Assembly: GCA_964601135.1 (NCBI GenBank)
Contig: CAZRMD010000003.1
Span: forward strand, 1-40,663
Length of the DNA: 40,663 nucleotides
Origin: an uncultured Actinomycetes bacterium
GTDB taxonomy: Bacteria; Chloroflexota; Dormibacteria; CF-121
Direction of reading: 5' to 3'
A program made the translations under genes and the position numbers. The notes under the pieces were generated by a model, which worked only from the letters and a program-made list of their open reading frames with translations, was not told the origin of the DNA and ran no database searches. Positions 3,909-30,863 of this stretch are shown here, in pieces (within the stretch, counting starts at the first letter, position 1; each line of letters begins with the position of its first letter).

Positions 3909-5867
3909 ATGGCCCAGGTCAATGTCGACCAGACGCTGGCGGACGGGCGGGAGGCGGTTCGCCGCCACGCCTGGAGGGAGGCGTATGAGCTGCTTCATGC
4001 AGCCGATCAGGCCGGTGCCCTCGAGCCGGATGACCTCGAGAGGCTGGCCGATGCGGCCTGGTGGAACGGTCGCGCCAACGATTGCGTCGGTGCCTGGGAA
4101 CGAGCCTACACCGCGCATCTCGAGGCCGGCCGAGCCGGGCGGGCGGCGATGGCTGCCATCCAACTCGCCCGTGAGCAGTTTGGCCTCAATGCCGCGGCCG
4201 TCGGCAACGCCTGGCTAAACCGGGCGCAACGCCTGTTGCAGGATCAGCCCGTCGGGGTTGAGCACGGCTACCTGGCGCGGGTCATGGCCGGAAGGGCCAT
4301 GGGCGCCGAGGACTTCGACCGTGCGCTGGAGCTGGCCCGCGAGACGCTCGAGATCGGCACCAAATTCGGCGACCGCGACCTGATGGCACTGGGGCTCCAC
4401 GATCAAGCGCGGGCTTTGATCAGGAAAGGACAGGTCGACGAAGGGATGGCCTTGCTCGATGAGGCGACCGTCGCCGCCGTCTCCGGCGAGCTCAATCCCC
4501 ACTACACCGCGGTCATTTACTGCAATCAGATTGGTGTCTGCGAAGAAATGGCCGACTACCGCCGGGCGGCCGAATGGACGGACGTGGCCCGCCGCTGGTG
4601 CGACCGGATGGCCATCGCCGGATTTCCTGGAATGTGTCGCGTCCACCGGGCGGATGTCATCCGCCTGCGCGGCGCCTGGAAGGAGGCGGAGGCCGAGGCG
4701 CGAAATGCCCTGGGCGAGCTCCGCGAATTTCAGGTGGGGTATGCCTCCGAGGCCCAGTATTTGATCGCCGAGACGCGGCTATGGATGGGCGATTTGACCG
4801 AAGCGAAAGAAGCGTTTGAACAGGCCCATGAGCTGGGCAGGGACCCAAACCCCGGGCTCGCGCTGTTACACCTGGCGGAGGGAAAAACTGACGCGGCCGT
4901 CGCCGCGATTCGCCGCGGTCTCGACAAGGAGCGCAACCCGCTTGCTCGAGCACGGCTGCTCCCGGCGCAGGTCACGATCGCGCAGGCAGCGGGCGATCGA
5001 TCCACGGTTGAGGCCGCTGCCCGGGAGCTGGATGAGACGGCGAAGACGTATGGAACGGCAGCGCTGAAGGCGCAGGCGTCACGCGCCGATGGCGTCGCGA
5101 GTCTGATGCGCGGCGATAGCGAAGCCGCGGTGCAGCAATTTTGTGAGGCGCTGAGTCTCTGGAGACAAATCGAGGTCCCCTACGAAGAAGCGAGAACTCG
5201 CGTGGCCCTGGCATCGGCGTACCGGACAGGAGGCGACACCGACGGCGCGGTCCTCGAGCTTCGCGCCGCCCGCGCCAGCTTTGCCCGGCTTGGCGCCGCT
5301 CTCGATGAGCGCGAGGCAGCGCGGATGCTCGCGGAACTCGGTGATGAGGCCGCCAGTCATCCGGCACCTGGCGATGCGGCGACGCGAACATTCCTCTTCA
5401 CCGACATCGTGCGGTCGACGGCGCTGGTCGAGGCCATGGGTGATGAAGCGTGGAATGAGGTGTTGCGCTGGCATGACCAGACGCTGCGGCGGCTGATCGC
5501 GCAACACGGTGGGGAGGAGATCAAGAACGTTGGCGACGGCGTCTTTGCCGGCTTCCCGCAACCCGGTCAGGCCATCGAATGTGCCGTCCAGATCCAGCGG
5601 ACACTTGCCGAGCATCGCCGTGACCACGGCTTTGCGCCTCAGGTCCGCATCGGCGTGCATCGCTCGGCGGCGACAAAGGTTGGCCAGGACTATCGCGGGA
5701 AGGGCGTCCACCAGGCCGCCCGCATCGCGAATGAGGCGCAGGGCGGCGAGATCCTCGCCAGCTGGCAGACGGCGCAAGCCTGCAAGTTTGCGATCTCCGA
5801 ACCGCGCGAGGTCACGCTGAAAGGCGTGGCCCAACCGGTTCAGGTCGTCAGCGTTAACTGGCGCTAA
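3909..5867 (+). CDS. TPR/MalT-like repeat protein fused to a class III adenylate/guanylate cyclase domain
   Basis: Ala-rich helical repeats, then FLFTDIVRST...KNVGDG...VRIGVH...DYRGKGVHQAARI. ATG 3909 follows GGGAG. Confidence 0.88.
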   Translation: MAQVNVDQTLADGREAVRRHAWREAYELLHAADQAGALEPDDLERLADAAWWNGRANDCVGAWERAYTAHLEAGRAGRAAMAAIQLAREQFGLNAAAVGNAWLNRAQRLLQDQPVGVEHGYLARVMAGRAMGAEDFDRALELARETLEIGTKFGDRDLMALGLHDQARALIRKGQVDEGMALLDEATVAAVSGELNPHYTAVIYCNQIGVCEEMADYRRAAEWTDVARRWCDRMAIAGFPGMCRVHRADVIRLRGAWKEAEAEARNALGELREFQVGYASEAQYLIAETRLWMGDLTEAKEAFEQAHELGRDPNPGLALLHLAEGKTDAAVAAIRRGLDKERNPLARARLLPAQVTIAQAAGDRSTVEAAARELDETAKTYGTAALKAQASRADGVASLMRGDSEAAVQQFCEALSLWRQIEVPYEEARTRVALASAYRTGGDTDGAVLELRAARASFARLGAALDEREAARMLAELGDEAASHPAPGDAATRTFLFTDIVRSTALVEAMGDEAWNEVLRWHDQTLRRLIAQHGGEEIKNVGDGVFAGFPQPGQAIECAVQIQRTLAEHRRDHGFAPQVRIGVHRSAATKVGQDYRGKGVHQAARIANEAQGGEILASWQTAQACKFAISEPREVTLKGVAQPVQVVSVNWR

Positions 5868-6728: not shown

Positions 6729-8255
6729 CTATTGAAGGAGGTCGTGCTGCAGGGCGAAGACCGCGGCCCCGGCTCGGGTGGAAACGCCAAGCTTGTCGTA
6801 GATGTGGCGAACGTGATGATCAGCCGTATTCGGTGAGATCCCGAGGGCCCGGCCAACCTCTTTCCTCGAGTGACCGCGGCAGATCAGCCGCAAAACCTCG
6901 ACCTCCCGATCGCTGAGCTCGGCCGGCCATTCCCGTCGTGCCGTGACGCGCCCGGCACCGGCCGCCGTCAGGACGGCATCGACGGCCTCACGATCACGCC
7001 TGCCCGCTGAGACGTCCTGGTTGAGAAGCGCGGCCGCTTCGTCCTTCGAGTGGGCCGGCCGCCACGGCCGGTCCGAGGTCATCGCCTGGAATGCGTCAGC
7101 CACCGACAGCAGCCGAGCGTTTCGTGAGATCTCGGGCGCGCGGCAACCTCGGTGATAACCAGAACCATCGAGATTTTCATGGTGGTGACCCGCGGAATCA
7201 GCCAGCGAGCTGAGCGCTTGACAGCGCAACAGGATGCGCTCGCTGTAGTAGGCGTGCAGACGTACCTGTTCGCGCTCCCCCTCGCTCAATGCTGCCGGCT
7301 TCTCCCAGGTCCCGTTTGGCACGGCTATTCGGCCAAGGTCGTGGACCAGGGCCGCACGTTTCAGGCTCTGCTGATCGTTCGCTCCTGCGCGAATTGCCAG
7401 GGCAGCCACCTGGCGTGAGTGACCGAGCATGAAAGGAGCCTTCATGTCGATGAAATCGGCGAAGACTTCCAGCACCGTGTCGAGCTTTGCGTCGGGTATC
7501 CATGGCCACGGTTCGGGCTCGGCCGCAAGCACGGCGTCCCATGGCGATGCGGTTTGGGCCAGGTCTTGCAAAAGCTCGCCTCCGCAAGCTGCGACGAGAT
7601 GGCTCAGTTCTGGATCATAGGTCCGAGCCTTTTGGCGGCCGGCGATGGTTTTGATGGCGGCGTCTGCATCGCTGGTCCGGCTCAACACCTCGAGGTCGCG
7701 GGCGATAAAGGCGATTCGTGCGGAGAGAGCAATCTGCTCTCCGGCAAGTCCATGCGGCAAACCGTGACCATTCCAGAGCTCAAACGTCTGCGCCAGCGAT
7801 CGACGAATGCCGTCATTCAGGGACAGTCGCTGGGCGAGGTTCTCCGCCAGCTCACAGTGCGCCAGCAAGCCCTGCCGGATCGGCGAGACACCGCCGGCGA
7901 TGAATCCGGGGATCTGCCGGGGCCGCACGTAGCGAAGGACGGTGGGCATGAATTCGCGAGGCGACGCTCCGAGCACCGGAGCAAGCCCAGCCCGGTAGCG
8001 ACGCTCATCGCCGCCAACCCGATGTGAAAGCTCGGACGAATCGGCGGTGCAGCCAATGAAGCGAAGGAGGGCGACATAGTAGACCTCGGAAAGTTCCGCA
8101 GCAGCAAGGTCGAGCTGCCGGCCCAGTCCCATCGCGAGCAGACAGGTTCGTAGCGCCTGCTCCATCGGTTGGCCCATGCCGAGGTCGGTCGCCAGCGAGA
8201 TGGCGGCGATCAGCTCGGCGAGCCGGAAGCTCGTTCGGTCGTGCCCGGTTAGCAT
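6729..8255 (-). CDS. HD-GYP-like phosphohydrolase domains with a C-terminal LuxR HTH
   Basis: RLAELIAAISLATDLGMGQP, LVHDLG, HHENLDGSGY, LSDREVEVLRL...HIYDKLGVSTR. The start was trimmed to ATG 8255 to avoid overlap with ggt. Confidence 0.88.
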   Translation of the reverse strand: MLTGHDRTSFRLAELIAAISLATDLGMGQPMEQALRTCLLAMGLGRQLDLAAAELSEVYYVALLRFIGCTADSSELSHRVGGDERRYRAGLAPVLGASPREFMPTVLRYVRPRQIPGFIAGGVSPIRQGLLAHCELAENLAQRLSLNDGIRRSLAQTFELWNGHGLPHGLAGEQIALSARIAFIARDLEVLSRTSDADAAIKTIAGRQKARTYDPELSHLVAACGGELLQDLAQTASPWDAVLAAEPEPWPWIPDAKLDTVLEVFADFIDMKAPFMLGHSRQVAALAIRAGANDQQSLKRAALVHDLGRIAVPNGTWEKPAALSEGEREQVRLHAYYSERILLRCQALSSLADSAGHHHENLDGSGYHRGCRAPEISRNARLLSVADAFQAMTSDRPWRPAHSKDEAAALLNQDVSAGRRDREAVDAVLTAAGAGRVTARREWPAELSDREVEVLRLICRGHSRKEVGRALGISPNTADHHVRHIYDKLGVSTRAGAAVFALQHDLLQ

Positions 8256-10414: not shown

Positions 10415-11113
10415 TCAGTTGGCGGAGAGAGGAAGCCTGAACCCGACGTAGCTCGGACGTCCCGAGCTCCATGTCATCGATCCGCCGTGGGCTTCGACGA
10501 TGGCCTTCACCAGCGCCAATCCGAGACCCATACCTTCGTCAACGCCCTCGCCCCGCTCTTCGCGAACAAAGGGGTCGAAGAGCCGGGCGGCGTTCGGACC
10601 CAAGCCTGCGCCCTCATCGAGCACTTGCATCTCAACCAATGATCCCAGTGGCCTGGTTGCAATGCTGACCTGGCCATGTGGCTTTCCGTACTTTGCGGCG
10701 TTATCGATGAGATTGAGCAGGCACATCTTCAGGTAGTAACTGTCCCCGACCACCCAGCGGCCGCCAGGCGCGGCCGGCCCCTGGACGTGAAGCTCGACGT
10801 TTCGGTATTGGCACAGTGGAACCGCGGCCTGTCGTGTTTCCTCCATCAGGGAATCAAGGGCGATGCGTTTTTTCCGGATTGGCAAGACGCCCGCCGCGGT
10901 TCGGCTCGCCTCCTCCAGTTGGACTGCCAAATGGTTGAGCTCGCGAATGCTTTCGCGCATCTGCGCCACGATCGCACGCCGGCGCCCCGGATCCGCCTGA
11001 ATTTCGTCGGCGGCGAGCATCTCCAGGTAACCGGCAATCAAGCTGGTGGGCAGGCGCAACTGATGCGCGACCAGGCGCAGGATGCTAGGCCACGGGTGTT
11101 CGCTGCTGCCCAT
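10415..11113 (-). CDS. Histidine kinase core (HisKA + HATPase) with no sensor domain
   Basis: VAHQLRLP H-box within about 20 residues of the start; NLIDNAAKYG, DEGAG, LFDPF, GMGLGL boxes. Confidence 0.85.
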   Translation of the reverse strand: MGSSEHPWPSILRLVAHQLRLPTSLIAGYLEMLAADEIQADPGRRRAIVAQMRESIRELNHLAVQLEEASRTAAGVLPIRKKRIALDSLMEETRQAAVPLCQYRNVELHVQGPAAPGGRWVVGDSYYLKMCLLNLIDNAAKYGKPHGQVSIATRPLGSLVEMQVLDEGAGLGPNAARLFDPFVREERGEGVDEGMGLGLALVKAIVEAHGGSMTWSSGRPSYVGFRLPLSAN

Positions 11114-22334: not shown

Positions 22335-23029
22335 GCCACGGCCTCTGACTCCGTCAAGCGGCGGCGAATATCATCGGCAGTGGCCAGCCCGATCAGCTCT
22401 CCATCGGAGGTCGTGACCAGGGCGTAGCCGAGGTGGTGATCGGCCAGATAGCGGTCCACCTCCTCCAGACCTGCGTTGGGCCGAAACGTAACTGGTCCTT
22501 TGAGCATTGCATCCTCGACCGTCCTGGAGGCATTCGACTGGATGTCATTACTCCTGAGCAGTCCCAGCACGATGCGATGCTCGTTGACGACGACGCAGGG
22601 ACTGGTTGAAGCGGACGTCAGCCGCGCCTTAACCTCACTGATGCGCTCATCGAGCTTGCACGTTGGACTGTCACGCCGCGCCAGCGTGCCGAGGTTCGGG
22701 ACGCCTGCCTTTGTCCCCTCCGTTGGAAGGCCCACGGAAACCCAGTCGAGCTTGCCCGGAGGGTAGTCGAAGACCTTGGTGAAGCCGAGACTCTCGAGCC
22801 GCCACGCGGCCCGCTTGCTCATGTCTCATTGGTAGTCGTAGCAGTAGGTGATGACAGGCCGGCTCTTGTCGAGCTTGCTGGTGGTAGTGCGATCGAGTTC
22901 CCGCAGCGGGATGCTGATGGCTCCGGGAAGATGCTCCTCCTCGTACTCCTGCGCAGGGAGAACCTCTACCAATTGCGCGCCTTCCCCCAGCAACTTCTGA
23001 AGCTGCGATCGATCGATGCTTGTCGGCAT
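22331..23029 (-). CDS. Rhodanese-CBS fusion protein, probable selenoprotein (232 aa, Sec68)
   Basis: Track ORFs 22826-23029 and 22331-22822 are in the same frame: ...ITYCYDYQ-TGA-DMSKRAAWRLESLGFTKVFDY. The TGA (22826-22828) falls inside the rhodanese active-site loop, and a hairpin follows. Confidence 0.8.
22795..22813 (-). promoter_or_regulatory. Candidate SECIS element (rhodanese-CBS)
   Basis: CGGGCCGC-GUG-GCGGCUCG; the G-initiated loop starts after a 20-nt spacer from the UGA; GAGAC/GUCUC can form a basal stem. Confidence 0.6.
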
Positions 23030-23057
23030 GGGCCAACCTCCTTTCTATGTGCCGGCG

Positions 23058-27487: not shown

Positions 27488-27641
27488 ATGCCCGAAATGC
27501 GGCACGCAGCTGAACGCCGGTGCGATCGATCCTCCAGGGCCACATGGACGGCCCGAGTTGATCTGCCCGCAGTGCGGCAACTACTATCTCTGGGTCGCCG
27601 AACAACTGGAACTGGCCCCTCACCATCCGCTAAAGGCCTAG
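27477..27641 (+). CDS. CPxCG zinc-finger microprotein (54 aa), absent from the ORF track
   Basis: AAGGAGG RBS; MMARCPKCGTQLNAGAIDPPGPHGRPELICPQCGNYYLWVAEQLELAPHHPLKA. Confidence 0.75.
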   Translation: MMARCPKCGTQLNAGAIDPPGPHGRPELICPQCGNYYLWVAEQLELAPHHPLKA

Positions 27642-28286
27642 CTGTTTTCGAGTGAGGGCACGTCGACCGGGATGATATCGCTGCGGGCGAAGATCGGTCC
27701 GACATTCAGACCGATTCGTCGGTAGACGGCCTCGGGCACGGAGATGTCCGCGAGGTAGAGGCTGCCGACCGAGGGCCGGGCCGCCGAGGTTAGCAGACCT
27801 CGCTTCGGCAACGCTAACGTCAGCGTGACCGCAGCGGATCAGTGAAGCCGCTGGCTCGGCGGGGGCACCGCGCAGGCTGTAGCCGATGAGCGCGTCGATG
27901 ATGAGCTCCGACTCGGCGACGAGCTCGGAGGTCCCAGCGCCGTGCAGCCGGATGGGAATCCCCATCCATTCAAGGGTCGTGAGCTGCAATCGCGGCACGC
28001 CGCGCATCTCTTCACCCGCATGCGCCAGCACAACCGTGACAGTCGCGCCCCACGCGGACAGGCGCCGCGCCGCGGCCAGCCCACCTCCGCCGTTGCCACC
28101 ACGTCCAGCCAGAACCGTGATGCGCTGCCCATGCAGCTCGCCGCCGAGGATGTCTCTGGCCAGCGTTGCCAGGCACCGGCCGGCATTCTCCATCATCTGC
28201 AAGAGGCTGATGCCGGCCTCCTCCATCATCAGCCGGTCGACTTCCCGCATCTGCTCAACCGAAACTGACGTGACCGCCGTTTGCAA
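27638..28286 (-). pseudogene. nnrE: NAD(P)H-hydrate epimerase (YjeF-N) with internal deletion and frameshift
   Basis: QMREVDR, LLQMMENAG, GRGGNGGGG, IIDALIGY. Near 27835 the frame jumps to AAVTLTLALPKRGL...LYLADISVP, and the conserved (S/A)xDxPSG segment is missing. Confidence 0.75.
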
Positions 28287-28288
28287 CG

Positions 28289-28573
28289 CTAAGGAACGAC
28301 CTTCACTCCGTGCCAGAACGCGACGTAGTCCTTGATCTGAGCAGCAGCGTCTGAGGGATCGGGGTAGTACCAGGCGCCGTCGCGACTCACCTTGCCGTCG
28401 ACGACGACGTCGTAATAGCTGGCGAGTCCCTTCCAGTGGCAGGTGGTATGTGTCTGGCTGTCGGTAAGGTACTGCCGCCTGACGCTGCTCGGCGGAAAAT
28501 AGTCGTTGCCTTCGACCTTGATCGTTTGATCGCTTTCGGCGATCACCGTGTTGTTCCAAACCGCCTTGGGCAT
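28289..28573 (-). CDS. DUF427 domain protein
   Basis: VIAESD, VEGNDYFPP, TTCHWKGLASYY, AWYYPDP, IKDYVAFW. Confidence 0.92.
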   Translation of the reverse strand: MPKAVWNNTVIAESDQTIKVEGNDYFPPSSVRRQYLTDSQTHTTCHWKGLASYYDVVVDGKVSRDGAWYYPDPSDAAAQIKDYVAFWHGVKVVP

Positions 28574-28605
28574 TCGAATCAGGCCTCCATGTTCTCGGTA
28601 ATCGA

Positions 28606-28821
28606 CTAACCCGCACTCTGGCGTTGCTGCCGGAGTTTGTGCGTCTCCCGGATCGCTTCTCGAAACTCGACGATCATCTGCTGATACTCCGTGACCTCGC
28701 GCGCCGCCTCGACCTGGCCGGCCGCGGCGAGCCGGCCTTTGATGGCCACCGAGGCATAGTAGGCACCGTTGTAATAGGGGAGGAGGTTTTCGAACTTGAA
28801 CGGCGGGTCGCCCCTAGCCAT
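28606..28821 (-). CDS. Hypothetical protein (71 aa) translationally coupled to the peroxiredoxin-like gene
   Basis: Start overlaps the upstream gene end by 8 nt; natural codon usage. Confidence 0.65.
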   Translation of the reverse strand: MARGDPPFKFENLLPYYNGAYYASVAIKGRLAAAGQVEAAREVTEYQQMIVEFREAIRETHKLRQQRQSAG

Positions 28822-29272
28822 GAGAGAGCGCCTTCATGATGGTTTCGTCCTTCGGCCGGTCCGCGAAATCTCGGCCCTCGTAGATGTACCGAACGACGCC
28901 CTGCCGATCGCTTAGGACGAGCGCCGGTTTCGAGATACGCCCTGGCTCGTCCCAAAATCCGAAGGGCTTGATGGCGGTCTCCCCCTCGTGATCGGTCAGC
29001 AGGTCAAAGGGGAGCAGAAGTTTCTCGATCATGTCCCGGTTCTGCTCCGCGGAATCGATCGAAATCGCATAGATTCGAACGCCGGCCTGTCGAAAGGTCT
29101 CGATCTTCCTGGCAATGCTGACCAGCTGCCCATTGCAGTATGGTCACCAGTCGCCGCGATAGAAGACCAGGAGGTTCGGTCCTGCCGGATCGGGCAGCGT
29201 TCGCTGGGAGCCATTCTGGTCTGACAGCGTGAAAGCCGGCAGCTTTGTCCCGACCTTCAGGGTGGTGGCCAT
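28814..29272 (-). CDS. AhpC/TSA peroxiredoxin-like protein, probable selenoprotein (152 aa, UxxC, Sec43)
   Basis: GAGG RBS; MATTLKVGTKLPAFTLSDQNG...LLVFYRGDW-TGA-PYCNGQL...AISIDS, continuing in frame into the track ORF 28814-29032. TGA at 29144-29146. Confidence 0.88.
29112..29136 (-). promoter_or_regulatory. Candidate SECIS element (peroxiredoxin-like)
   Basis: GCAAU-GGGCA-GCU-GGUC-AGC-AUUGC; the GGUC loop starts after a 20-nt spacer from the UGA. Confidence 0.65.
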
Positions 29273-29341
29273 ACCTCTTCGAACAACCTACGCGACAACA
29301 ATCTTCCAGGGCAAGCCGTGCCAATCGATTTCGTAGCGGTC

Positions 29342-30187
29342 TCATACGGGAAAGAGCTTCGCGAAGAAGCTCGAAAATGCCGCCAGCATCAGAAACCAGG
29401 CACCCACGAGAATGAGGATTCGTCCGCCCATTCGCTTGACGGTTGGGGCGTTGGCGCGCATCGTGGCCGTCACGCGCTCACTGGCTGAGGCGATCAAGGC
29501 CGCCAGAGTGAACATCAAGGTGATCATCGCCAGGCCGGCGACGGCGAACGCGAGAACCGCTGCACCGAAGCCACCGACACTGAGCGACGCGCTGGCCAGA
29601 CCGGCCAGGATGGGGCCGGTTCAGCCAAAACCGGCCAGCACGTAGCCGAAGCCGAACAAGAAGAAGCCCGGCAGCGGATGCTCGTGGCGAAAGGCGGCCT
29701 GGCGGCGCATCGCGCCATGCACCGCCGGCTCGAGCGCCCGAAACTCGAAGGGCATGCGGTTGAGCTGGACGAGGCCGAAAAAGATGAGAACCACACCTAC
29801 AGCGGCCCGAATCAGGCGGCCGGTGGTACTCGTGAACGTCACTCCCGCAAAGAGCGCCGTTCCCAAAAGCGCGATGACGAGTCCAGCGAGGATCAAGAAC
29901 ACCGCGGCCCCGACTGCCAATGCTGCCGCATAGCTGAGAGACGCCGCCACACGCCTGTCCGATGCGACACCGGGGGCTCGCGCCAGGATCGAGAGAAGGA
30001 GCGGAAACGAACAGGGCGAAAAGAACGATGCGATGCCCGCGGCAGCGGCGAGCAACAGCAGGGCGCCGCCGGCCACCGGCGGGAGGTGAAAACGTGGATA
30101 CACGACGTAGCCCGCATAGCCAGCCAGCGCGACAGCGAGTATCAGTAAGGAAAGGAGGACGAAGCGCTGCCGCAGAAGCGGTCTCAG
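29342..30187 (-). CDS. CcdA/DsbD transmembrane-type disulfide reductase, probable selenoprotein; start uncertain (CTG 30187 or GTG 30103)
   Basis: First motif SFFSPCSFPLL; second motif GYVLAGFG-TGA-TGPILAGL (TGA 29621-29623), in frame with the track ORF 29342-29527, which ends ...KRMGGRILILVGAW. Confidence 0.8.
29592..29608 (-). promoter_or_regulatory. Candidate SECIS element (CcdA-like)
   Basis: CUGGCC-GGUCU-GGCCAG, a perfect 6-bp stem; the loop starts after an 18-nt spacer from the UGA. Confidence 0.7.
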
Positions 30188-30863
30188 GCTGACGCCGCCG
30201 CATTTCCGCGGAGGACAAGGAGCTTGCGAACCAGGATGCGCCGGCCCTGATTGCTGATGATGCCGTGCTGGCGCCAGTCCGAGAGCGTCCGCGATACGGA
30301 CTCGCGAGTTGCCCCAATCATCTTGCCCAGGTCCTCGTGCGATACGGGTGGAAGCAGCACCCCTTCCGGCGTTTGCTCGCCCTGGTCGATCATCGAGACC
30401 ACGAGAGTGGCTAGGCGACCGGCGACTGGCTGGGAGACCACGCTCTCCAGCGTGTCCTGGAGGTGCACGATTGCTTGGCCATCACCATCATGACCCTGGC
30501 CATCAAGAGCGGGTGCTTAGCCAGCATCTGCAGGAAGTCCTGGCCCCCGGCATCGCAGATATAGCTGTCCTGGATCGGCTCGGCGTGCGTGGCCTCGCTG
30601 CTTCTGCCGAACAGAGCTCCCACGCCGAATAGCTGGCCCGGTCCCAGAACCGCCGTGGTCACCTCATGCCCTTGGGGCGAGAGCTGATAGAGACGAACCC
30701 GGCCCTCCTTGACGAGGTAGACCCGCTCGCTGGAGCCGTCGAGGACAGCCGTTCCCTGCGGACAGTGGCGCATGCGGAGCTCGCTCGAAACCGCGGCCAC
30801 TTCGGCATCGGTCATCCCATCGAAGAGGTTCAGGCGGCGCATGAACCACAGCTTGTCGGGCAC
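30184..30863 (-). pseudogene. Crp/Fnr-family regulator with a 1-nt frameshift (possibly an assembly error)
   Basis: The cNMP domain (30411-30863 frame) and the HTH SHEDLGKMIGATRESVSRTL (30184-30468 frame) join as MAKQ-IVHLQD if one A is added to the AA run at 30471-30472. Confidence 0.8.

Follow-up and report, generated by a model that had tools for sequence, protein, structure and literature searches.

The stretch from position 1 to 40,663 of contig CAZRMD010000003.1 (GenBank assembly GCA_964601135.1; GTDB lineage Chloroflexota, Dormibacteria, CF-121), which we call the window, contains on its minus strand, at 29342..30187, a gene resembling the membrane electron transporters CcdA and DsbD, with a TGA in frame at codon 189. 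Is this gene broken, is its TGA read as an amino acid and, if so, what does the full-length product carry across the membrane? A first-pass annotation, made from the letters of the DNA, had taken the codon for selenocysteine (Sec) at the second catalytic position of a CcdA/DsbD-type protein; the elements it drew on, an SPC motif, GFG-TGA-TGPILA and CUGGCC-GGUCU-GGCCAG, are all present on the minus strand where it had placed them. Our analysis indicates that this is almost certainly a genuine selenoprotein gene, in which UGA189 is decoded as Sec through a hairpin inside the coding sequence that resembles the Sec insertion sequence (SECIS) of Escherichia coli fdhF.

Conservation of the in-frame UGA

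A scan of one genome per species yielded 236 confirmed stretches, and all locus counts given here rest on the best 80 of these 236, most of which derive from metagenome-assembled genomes (MAGs). TGA occupies the Sec column in 80 of 80 loci (69 recognized by a first pattern, 5 by a looser pattern and 6 through tblastn alignment), and TAA or TAG is never present there. Since the TGA is kept throughout, an assembly error at this codon is irrelevant. The frame beyond it is kept as well. Among 81 sequences, the 80 loci and the window, it stays open for exactly 92 codons in 63. The end lies on the contig in 78, of which 77 have 88 codons or more and one has 63; the other three leave their contig. 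Substitutions at the three codon positions stand at 0.41/0.30/0.59 downstream of the TGA and 0.48/0.40/0.63 upstream, a coding-like pattern on both sides. In the window, the family profile A3 scores the locus at 324.7 bits across 29345-30172, with one TGA inside. The situation that the first-pass annotation had named as speaking against a selenoprotein, a TGA unique to this assembly with decaying sequence behind it, is thus the opposite of what we find.

Relatives without the TGA show which residue it replaces. A search of 1.84 billion representatives gave 656 matches at E<=1e-3, of which we examined the best 150; 68 of these end exactly at the Sec site. Among the 60 non-truncated representatives of at least 205 residues, the Sec column holds Cys in 56 and Trp in one, the other three being frameshifted calls. 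The first-pass annotation had proposed counting TGA against Cys at this column and had regarded a column other than Cys as contrary to its reading; Cys is the prevailing residue in the full-length forms, as TGA is in the loci.

If the TGA were a true stop, the locus would encode a 188-residue half of a CcdA or be a decaying pseudogene. Gene callers treat it in this way: 115 of 120 database homologues retrieved by protein search terminate exactly at ...G(F/V)G, the residue preceding the TGA, and the RefSeq entry of the gene in the only cultured isolate among the 80 loci, Aquibacillus salsiterrae (Bacillota; locus L031), is a “cytochrome c biogenesis CcdA family protein” of 193 residues cut at the TGA (WP_272447706.1). 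The constancy of the codon and the conserved 92-codon continuation under coding constraint argue against this reading, as do the SECIS and the Sec machinery described below. By an altered code, the TGA could instead specify Trp, and two JGI gene calls indeed place W at the Sec column; the single W among the 60 representatives is, we take it, likewise a TGA translated under another code. The genuine ends of these genes speak against a Trp code: in 78 sequences they are TGA in 40, TAG in 31 and TAA in 7, and since TGA ends 40 of the 78, it is an ordinary stop in these organisms and not reassigned. We regard a true stop or a Trp codon as extremely improbable. Three full-length database proteins (P0011, P0012, P0254) have W at the Sec column, which we take to be the work of a gene caller reading TGA by a Trp-recoding table; they confirm the continuation past the TGA.

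A SECIS-like hairpin and the Sec machinery

The putative SECIS begins 12 nt past the TGA and consists of a 5' arm CUGGCC (29608..29603), a loop GGUCU (29602..29598) and a 3' arm GGCCAG (29597..29592). Folded as a single sequence it is near chance, both as a 71-nt segment (z = −1.44, 18 of 200 shuffles folding equally well) and as a 41-nt segment (z = −0.53, 49 of 200), a result that would also be expected if the TGA were a true stop. As the single sequence does not go beyond chance, it is the comparison across loci that decides whether the hairpin is real. In an alignment of 81 sequences with 51 gap-free columns, 94.7% of the 486 cells of the hairpin are paired, and in five of its six pairs both partners vary (18 cells). 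Not one of these measures was equalled in 500 shuffles, and slid partners pair in only 2.9-49.8% of cells. Further, 76 of 80 loci use GGT for the Gly of the loop, compared to 15.7% among 2643 other Gly codons of the same open reading frames (ORFs), and nucleotide 23, a G, is unchanged in 81 of 81 sequences. Conservation of the hairpin and of the sequence after the TGA, which the first-pass annotation had wanted examined, is therefore evident both in the covariation of five of six pairs and in the kept frame.

The minimum-energy fold of the window RNA favours a competing hairpin, ACCGGCC/GGCCGGU. We rejected it as a conserved element: none of its pairs shows a two-sided change, and 320 of 500 shuffles equal its pairing. 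An Rfam search over 28900-29800 at E<=10 returned just one irrelevant match of 15.9 bits and no family for the CUGGCC/GGCCAG hairpin.

That the SECIS loop of E. coli fdhF reads GGUCU had been stated in the first-pass annotation, correctly, and the resemblance extends to the register. In E. coli K-12 fdhF the UGA is followed by CACGGCCCAUC-GGUUGCA-GGUCU-GCACC, so that GGUCUG forms nucleotides 22-27 counted from the U of UGA; GGUC of the window hairpin likewise starts at nucleotide 22. Both elements comprise the UGA, a spacer and a stem closing on GGUCU, with G22-G23-U24-C25-U26-G27 at the same positions, and G23 and U24 are, as we assume, the contacts of SelB. The stems differ in sequence, the window lacks the bulged U17/18, its spacer measures 12 nt as opposed to 11 in fdhF, and its 5' arm has 6 bp as opposed to 7 positions. 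The similarity is also visible in the encoded peptide, U-x-G-P-x-x-A-G-L in both FdhH and the CcdA-like Sec family, to which the CcdA motif C-x-G-P-I-L is close. Pre-adaptation of the ancestral peptide to a SECIS is conceivable. G-P-I-L-A-G-L after the second Cys of the CcdA family can encode an fdhF-like element in register, which offers an example of how a Cys codon can be converted into a Sec codon.

The genome that contains the window (3.67 Mb in 512 contigs, 82.7% complete, 5.07% contamination) has the genes needed for this decoding, with selB at 349 bits, selA at 549 bits and selD at 397 bits, each over its cut-off, and ARAGORN, run on the whole genome, reports a tRNA-SeC(tca) on contig C197. 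The Rfam tRNA-Sec model did not reach its gathering score of 47 in this genome (best match 45.5 bits), and its five top matches were rejected as candidates, ARAGORN typing four of them as tRNA-Ser (two), tRNA-Leu and tRNA-Arg and finding no gene in the fifth. In five of five other genomes with the CcdA-like Sec gene, one of which (G002, locus L041) is flagged unpublished, selA is over its cut-off. From the conserved codon, the covarying hairpin with its GGT bias and the machinery, we infer that Sec is inserted at UGA189. The selD gene (contig C11:11489-12418) itself has one in-frame TGA and is thus a selenoprotein form of selenophosphate synthetase.

Fold, distribution and catalogue status of the family

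At E<=0.01, the only Pfam match of the selenoprotein is DsbD_TM (PF02683), whose 219-position profile is matched from 6 to 215, in an alignment that passes over the TGA, with 19.9 bits, below the gathering threshold of 27.1; a genome-wide search with the same model scores it at 19.2 bits, and some of its Cys relatives exceed the threshold. The alignment of the readthrough product to a DsbD/CcdA model that the first-pass annotation had suggested is hence near full length, at a score that falls short. NCBIfam yielded no model for the protein, not even at E<=10. When 66 family members were combined into a profile, it matched a single solved structure, CcdA of Thermus thermophilus (5vkv_A, E 5.7e-4). 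Here SFLSPCVLP aligns to FFSPCSFP, pairing Cys59 with the first active-site Cys, and WTPCIGPIL aligns to GFG-U-TGPIL, with residue 189 in the place of the second. The canonical CcdA present in locus L095 aligns identically, with a match at both active-site positions, and in alignment A3 both C59 and C/U189 are invariant. With Cys at this column in relatives, and the second Cys of CcdA aligned to it, the family presents a classical Sec/Cys pair. It belongs to a divergent branch of the CcdA superfamily, and the pair falls on the second active-site position, in agreement with the assignment made on first reading.

Seven long helices are seen in an AlphaFold (AF2) model (pLDDT 87, pTM 0.76), in which the first helix of the core is interrupted at residues 56-60. 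Foldseek returned 5vkv as the best and only credible PDB match of this model (probability 1.00, E 0.026, TM 0.41/0.48), the model having an extra helix at the N-terminus. The product probably consists of seven helices, this additional one followed by a six-helix core of the CcdA/DsbD type. The positive-inside rule and the model together suggest that the N-terminus is inside and the C-terminus outside.

Structurally, the family thus resembles T. thermophilus CcdA (5VKV) and the transmembrane domains of DsbD and ScsB, with which it shares the Pro-Cys helix break and probably the six-helix core. It differs from CcdA and DsbD in its Sec in place of the second Cys, its predicted extra N-terminal helix and its sub-threshold score to PF02683. 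A further difference to CcdA lies in the genomic surroundings: MerR and HMA genes are neighbours here, and cytochrome c maturation genes (ResB, CcsA and Ccm families) are absent from the Pfam matches of 333 neighbouring ORFs, an absence that counts only against a cytochrome link. The window's genome moreover holds a separate canonical CcdA beside the Sec form (contig C57, 54.2 bits), together with a Cys relative on contig C43 and a second Sec copy on contig C74.

By database labels, the 80 loci belong chiefly to Acidimicrobiia, other Actinomycetota, Gaiellaceae and Chloroflexota, with a few MAGs labelled otherwise. To our knowledge, none of Acidimicrobiia, Gaiellaceae, Chloroflexota and Aquibacillus counts among the groups classically regarded as rich in selenoproteins. 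Of 300 other genomes sampled evenly from the window's phylum, two had a match at E<=1e-30, each with one TGA, and genomes of the same genus (n=2) and the same family (n=4) had none, so that the distribution of the gene is patchy. We are confident that these sequences form a Sec-dominated clade in Actinomycetota, Chloroflexota and one Bacillota isolate that is annotated everywhere as truncated CcdA. Recognizing it corrects a systematic annotation error, by which 115 of 120 homologues, along with the isolate's RefSeq entry, have been shortened to two thirds of their length.

The first-pass annotation had surmised that the family may be undescribed, and the sources covered are in line with this. 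Table 1 of a review of May 2026 lists 119 prokaryotic selenoprotein families without an entry for CcdA or PF02683 (PMC13188914). Passages from the main texts of the BSepDB and deep-Sep papers mention neither CcdA nor DsbD, and their supplementary family lists could name the family. Literature on selenoproteins in combination with CcdA or DsbD, covered at the level of main texts, yielded only unrelated papers beside that review. Judged by its sequences, the family is genuine, of considerable size and wrongly annotated; its members are selenoproteins that carry Sec on the CcdA scaffold, encoded with a SECIS like that of fdhF. It would add to the prokaryotic selenoproteome a well-supported family whose Sec is buried in a membrane active site.

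The nearest entry of Table 1 is TsoB, described as rhodanese/DsbD fusion-like with the motif UxxxxU (PMC13188914); no other selenoprotein of the catalogue has a membrane domain of the DsbD type. We rejected TsoB as the identity of our selenoprotein. The TsoB model NF045694 (cut-off 805 bits) gave no match to our selenoprotein at E<=10, nor to its locus in a genome search, and reached only 31 bits on a distant Cys relative. Further, TsoB is catalogued with two Sec residues (PMC13188914), whereas the family described here has a single Sec inside the membrane domain and no fused rhodanese. The resemblance nevertheless raises the possibility that the DsbD-like core and a rhodanese-type selenoprotein pass persulfide, perselenide or another chalcogen at the membrane. 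A rhodanese-CBS selenoprotein is encoded in the window, homologues with a TGA at the same column neighbour the CcdA-like gene in 7 of 80 loci, two of them with a second TGA giving the U-x4-U motif of TsoB (PMC13188914), and in L067 such a homologue directly follows the Sec gene. Yet seven loci are a small share, the window's own rhodanese gene lies 6.3 kb away and the TsoB model matches neither protein nor locus. We consider chalcogen trafficking improbable.

Genomic neighbourhood and possible cargo

The genes around the CcdA-like Sec gene bear on what it transports. We compared the 333 ORFs within 2.5 kb of the gene in the 80 loci to Pfam and counted MerR and HMA genes with custom profiles on all six-frame pieces of these loci. 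A MerR-family gene with a metal-type dimerisation domain is present in 43 of 80 loci, at a distance of at most 500 nt from the gene in 41 and of at most 150 nt in 31. Upstream genes make up most of the 41, with 20 divergent and 15 on the strand of the Sec gene; the remaining 6 lie downstream. Based on four matches in the window's 3.67-Mb genome, about 0.58 would be expected in the 533 kb of the loci, a rough estimate from one genome. Two Cys residues are shared by these MerR-like neighbours, one at the ‘79’ position and one near the C-terminus. HMA domains were found in 12 of 80 loci, as in-frame N-terminal fusions in three (L026, L075, L088), and in 16 of 120 database homologues according to precomputed annotation. 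P-type ATPases occur in six loci and MerB-like genes, below cut-off, in two (L040, L054). Six loci have a DUF7482 protein (PF24298), which is TAT-lipoprotein-like and extracytoplasmic; this domain is fused to the C-terminus of the Sec protein in L044 (4652-5302) and L057 and of the Cys relative P0202. In the fused state this domain lacks Cys and therefore cannot accept electrons by disulfide exchange. As a stand-alone neighbour, DUF7482 is seen in L041, L054, L058 and L090, and as a partial ORF in L072.

Given the commonest neighbours, MerR genes in 43 loci and HMA domains in 12, and the Cys-free extracytoplasmic fusion, a soft-metal cargo is at least as likely as electrons. In many loci, a metal-type MerR gene and the Sec gene form a seemingly self-sufficient pair, which we also count in favour of metal. 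The window protein, which itself has no such neighbours, is 56-64% identical to MerR-linked and HMA-fused members, so that a single cargo is to be expected for all. Quite possibly, then, the Cys59/Sec189 pair translocates a soft metal on a CcdA-type scaffold. Cys59, in the S-P-C helix break, and Sec189 almost certainly take the places of the CcdA redox pair, which lies mid-membrane. On this proposal the two residues would be the ligands of a thiophilic divalent metal, one of the Hg(II)/Cd(II) class. An alternating-access movement of the CcdA type would open their site to either side of the membrane, and the ion would pass, in efflux or in uptake for reduction, between the outside and CxxC or UxxC proteins of the cytoplasm. 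The cytoplasmic partner would be the fused or adjacent HMA domain in relatives and a peroxiredoxin-like (Prx-like) UxxC selenoprotein in the window, and a metal-sensing MerR regulator would control expression in most genomes. In its full form, with the intramembrane pair carrying Hg(II)-class ions between an HMA or UxxC protein and a Cys-free outer domain under MerR control, the proposal is held more tentatively. If it were true, the family would represent a new class of metal translocator in a superfamily known only for electron transfer, and the first translocation site built with selenium.

Several observations weigh against a metal cargo. As far as we know, all characterized members of the DsbD/CcdA superfamily with both Cys are electron carriers. 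A regulator reveals the inducing signal and not the cargo. Of 25 MerR-like neighbours, not one attains the cut-off of any metal-specific NCBIfam model, so that they point to no particular metal; the nearest, that of Aquibacillus, has 145.8 bits compared to the 150.85 required for Hg-MerR. The neighbour ORFs of the survey were picked by our own filter. Of the six loci with Pyr_redox flavoproteins only one (L067) has a true MerA (561.5 bits, cut-off 454), in the order arsR-merA-orf-CcdA-like Sec gene-rhodanese, with arsR, merA and the Sec gene in one direction; as MerA, the other flavoproteins were rejected. Distant Cys relatives (P0232, P0253, P0270-P0272) are fused to AhpC/TSA-redoxin domains. 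Finally, the window has neither a MerR nor an HMA gene. Its Sec gene neighbours a Crp-type regulator and the Prx-like UxxC selenoprotein, to which the C74 copy adds an FAD disulfide reductase, and the natural reading of these three genes is a redox chain. The features of the window are collected in Table 1.

Table 1. Position of the CcdA-like selenoprotein gene, its elements and accompanying genes in the window, and of the second copy in the same genome
Feature	Position	Strand	Basis or remark
CcdA-like selenoprotein, coding sequence	29342..30187	minus	281 codons + TGA stop 29344..29342; readthrough translation
Cys59 codon (TGT), first active-site position, in FFSPCSFP	30013..30011	minus	readthrough translation
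In-frame UGA, residue 189, second active-site position, in GFG-U-TGPILAGLA	29623..29621	minus	TGA in 80/80 loci
Putative SECIS hairpin CUGGCC-GGUCU-GGCCAG	29592..29608	minus	covariation, GGT bias, fdhF register
Prx-like AhpC/TSA selenoprotein, FYRGDW-U-PYC	28814..29272	minus	Pfam AhpC-TSA 91.7 bits; TGA 29146..29144
71-residue ORF	28606..28821	minus	no Pfam match; 84.5% identical copy in C74 operon
DUF427 protein, last conserved operon gene	28289..28573	minus	Pfam PF04248 112.4 bits; also follows C74 copy
Crp/Fnr-type regulator, upstream, in two frames	30184..30863	minus	cNMP-binding part 30411-30863, HTH part 30187-30468
Rhodanese-CBS selenoprotein, ...YCYDYQ-U-DMS...	about 22544-23030	minus	in-frame TGA in active-site loop
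Second Sec copy (locus L101)	contig C74:5956-6786		316.8 bits, one TGA, TTG start

The operon on C74 has the same gene order as the window, and the Prx-like gene there retains its TGA and shares 79% identity with that of the window. Upstream of it lies a divergent gene for an FAD disulfide reductase (Pyr_redox-type, CPYWGC) without a C-terminal Cys pair. At the DNA level, the match between the two loci spans 312 nt only. The C74 copy may be a paralogue or may stem from a co-binned relative or population, considering the contamination estimate given above. We rejected the Prx-like protein as a family-wide partner, since proteins related to it are found in only 4 of 80 loci; its association with the Sec gene is conserved in the two copies of this genome.

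These genes bring in the reading with which the first-pass annotation had begun, a transmembrane relay of reductant. Cys59 and Sec189 would cycle between selenol/thiol and selenenylsulfide and reduce extracytoplasmic proteins; the electrons would come from a cytoplasmic thioredoxin-fold donor, in the window the Prx-like protein with its UxxC motif, and the FAD disulfide reductase found on C74 may in turn supply this donor, and metal stress would be the switch in most genomes, as in the copper-linked ScsB system. Such a relay accords with the conservation of both CcdA active-site positions and with an operon of CcdA-like Sec gene, Prx-like Sec gene, 71-residue ORF and DUF427 gene kept in two diverged copies, one with a divergent CPYWGC Pyr_redox-type gene. 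It also accords with the six loci that have Pyr_redox flavoproteins, with thioredoxin-fold neighbours in L032, L038, L046, L066, L072 and L095, with the redoxin fusions of distant Cys relatives and with the general preference of Sec for redox sites (PMC13188914). In locus L056, from an Anaerolinea MAG, a redoxin with HTW-U-PAC, and thus a W-U-P-A-C motif, is encoded convergently to the Sec gene (4997-5284, minus strand).

The N-terminal HMA fusions and the Cys-free fused outer domain, however, fit a relay poorly, and in several loci the MerR and Sec genes are self-contained with no outside partner visible. Prx-like relatives occur in few loci, the Prx-like protein of the window lacks a signal peptide and thus provides no candidate for an extracytoplasmic acceptor here, and the genome already possesses a canonical CcdA. 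We regard the relay as a serious but somewhat doubtful alternative. Of the original proposal of a Cys/Sec redox relay, the identification of the two residues stands, on the strength of the 5vkv_A alignment, and the transport of electrons becomes one of two live options in view of the MerR and HMA neighbours. The link to these genes poses the question whether a CcdA scaffold moves soft metals or metal stress calls for a reductant relay accelerated by selenium.

For translocation of a soft metal by the Cys59/Sec189 pair, known transport proteins offer partial parallels. Among the entries in Table 4 of a 2025 review are actinomycete proteins that have a CcdA domain and bear the annotation of mercury transporter (PMC12195606). 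As described there, these are membrane proteins that, like our family, carry the CcdA domain, in mercury-resistance clusters together with thioredoxin-domain proteins; unlike our family they are Cys forms, named by pipeline annotation without a cited experiment (PMC12195606). The mercury transporters listed by Boyd & Barkay 2012 are MerT, C, F, E and H, none of which is CcdA-like. Pfam gave the selenoprotein no match to MerT (PF02411) at E<=0.01, one distant Cys relative matched MerC weakly (21.1 bits, cut-off 27.6), and a tblastn search with the selenoprotein against 72,556 plasmids found no match. The catalogued Sec-bearing membrane transport proteins provide a precedent for the binding of soft metals by Sec (PMC13188914), and their genomic company of MerR, HMA and ATPases is similar. 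Their folds are unrelated; DsbD_TM is the only Pfam family found in the selenoprotein.

The translation start of the gene is uncertain. The first canonical start is GTG 30103, there being no ATG, GTG or TTG between the upstream open frame and this codon, and its use would remove the first helix (TM0). CTG 30187 is a candidate; with the stop of the Crp-like gene upstream it forms the overlap CTGA. The division of that regulator into two frames probably reflects either a frameshift or an assembly error; by eye, a YjeF_N-like gene at 27630-28616 (minus strand) looks split too. These two genes suggest indel errors in the contig, which bears on the start of the selenoprotein.

Two minor observations concern relatives of the gene. 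On contig C43, the strongest MerR-type match of the window's genome is located 3 kb from the Cys relative (the two at 10504-10962, minus strand, and 6775-7464, plus strand). Among the 80 loci, a subclade of six (L063, L068, L069, L071, L073, L091) has the motif GF(G/S)-U-TGPLL and 91 codons past the TGA. Its neighbours include PNPOx-like proteins (L068, L069, L073, L091) and SfLAP (L069, L071), with a MerR-family match only in L069, and in L063, L069 and L073 the gene adjoins a molybdopterin oxidoreductase that is apparently broken at a stop.

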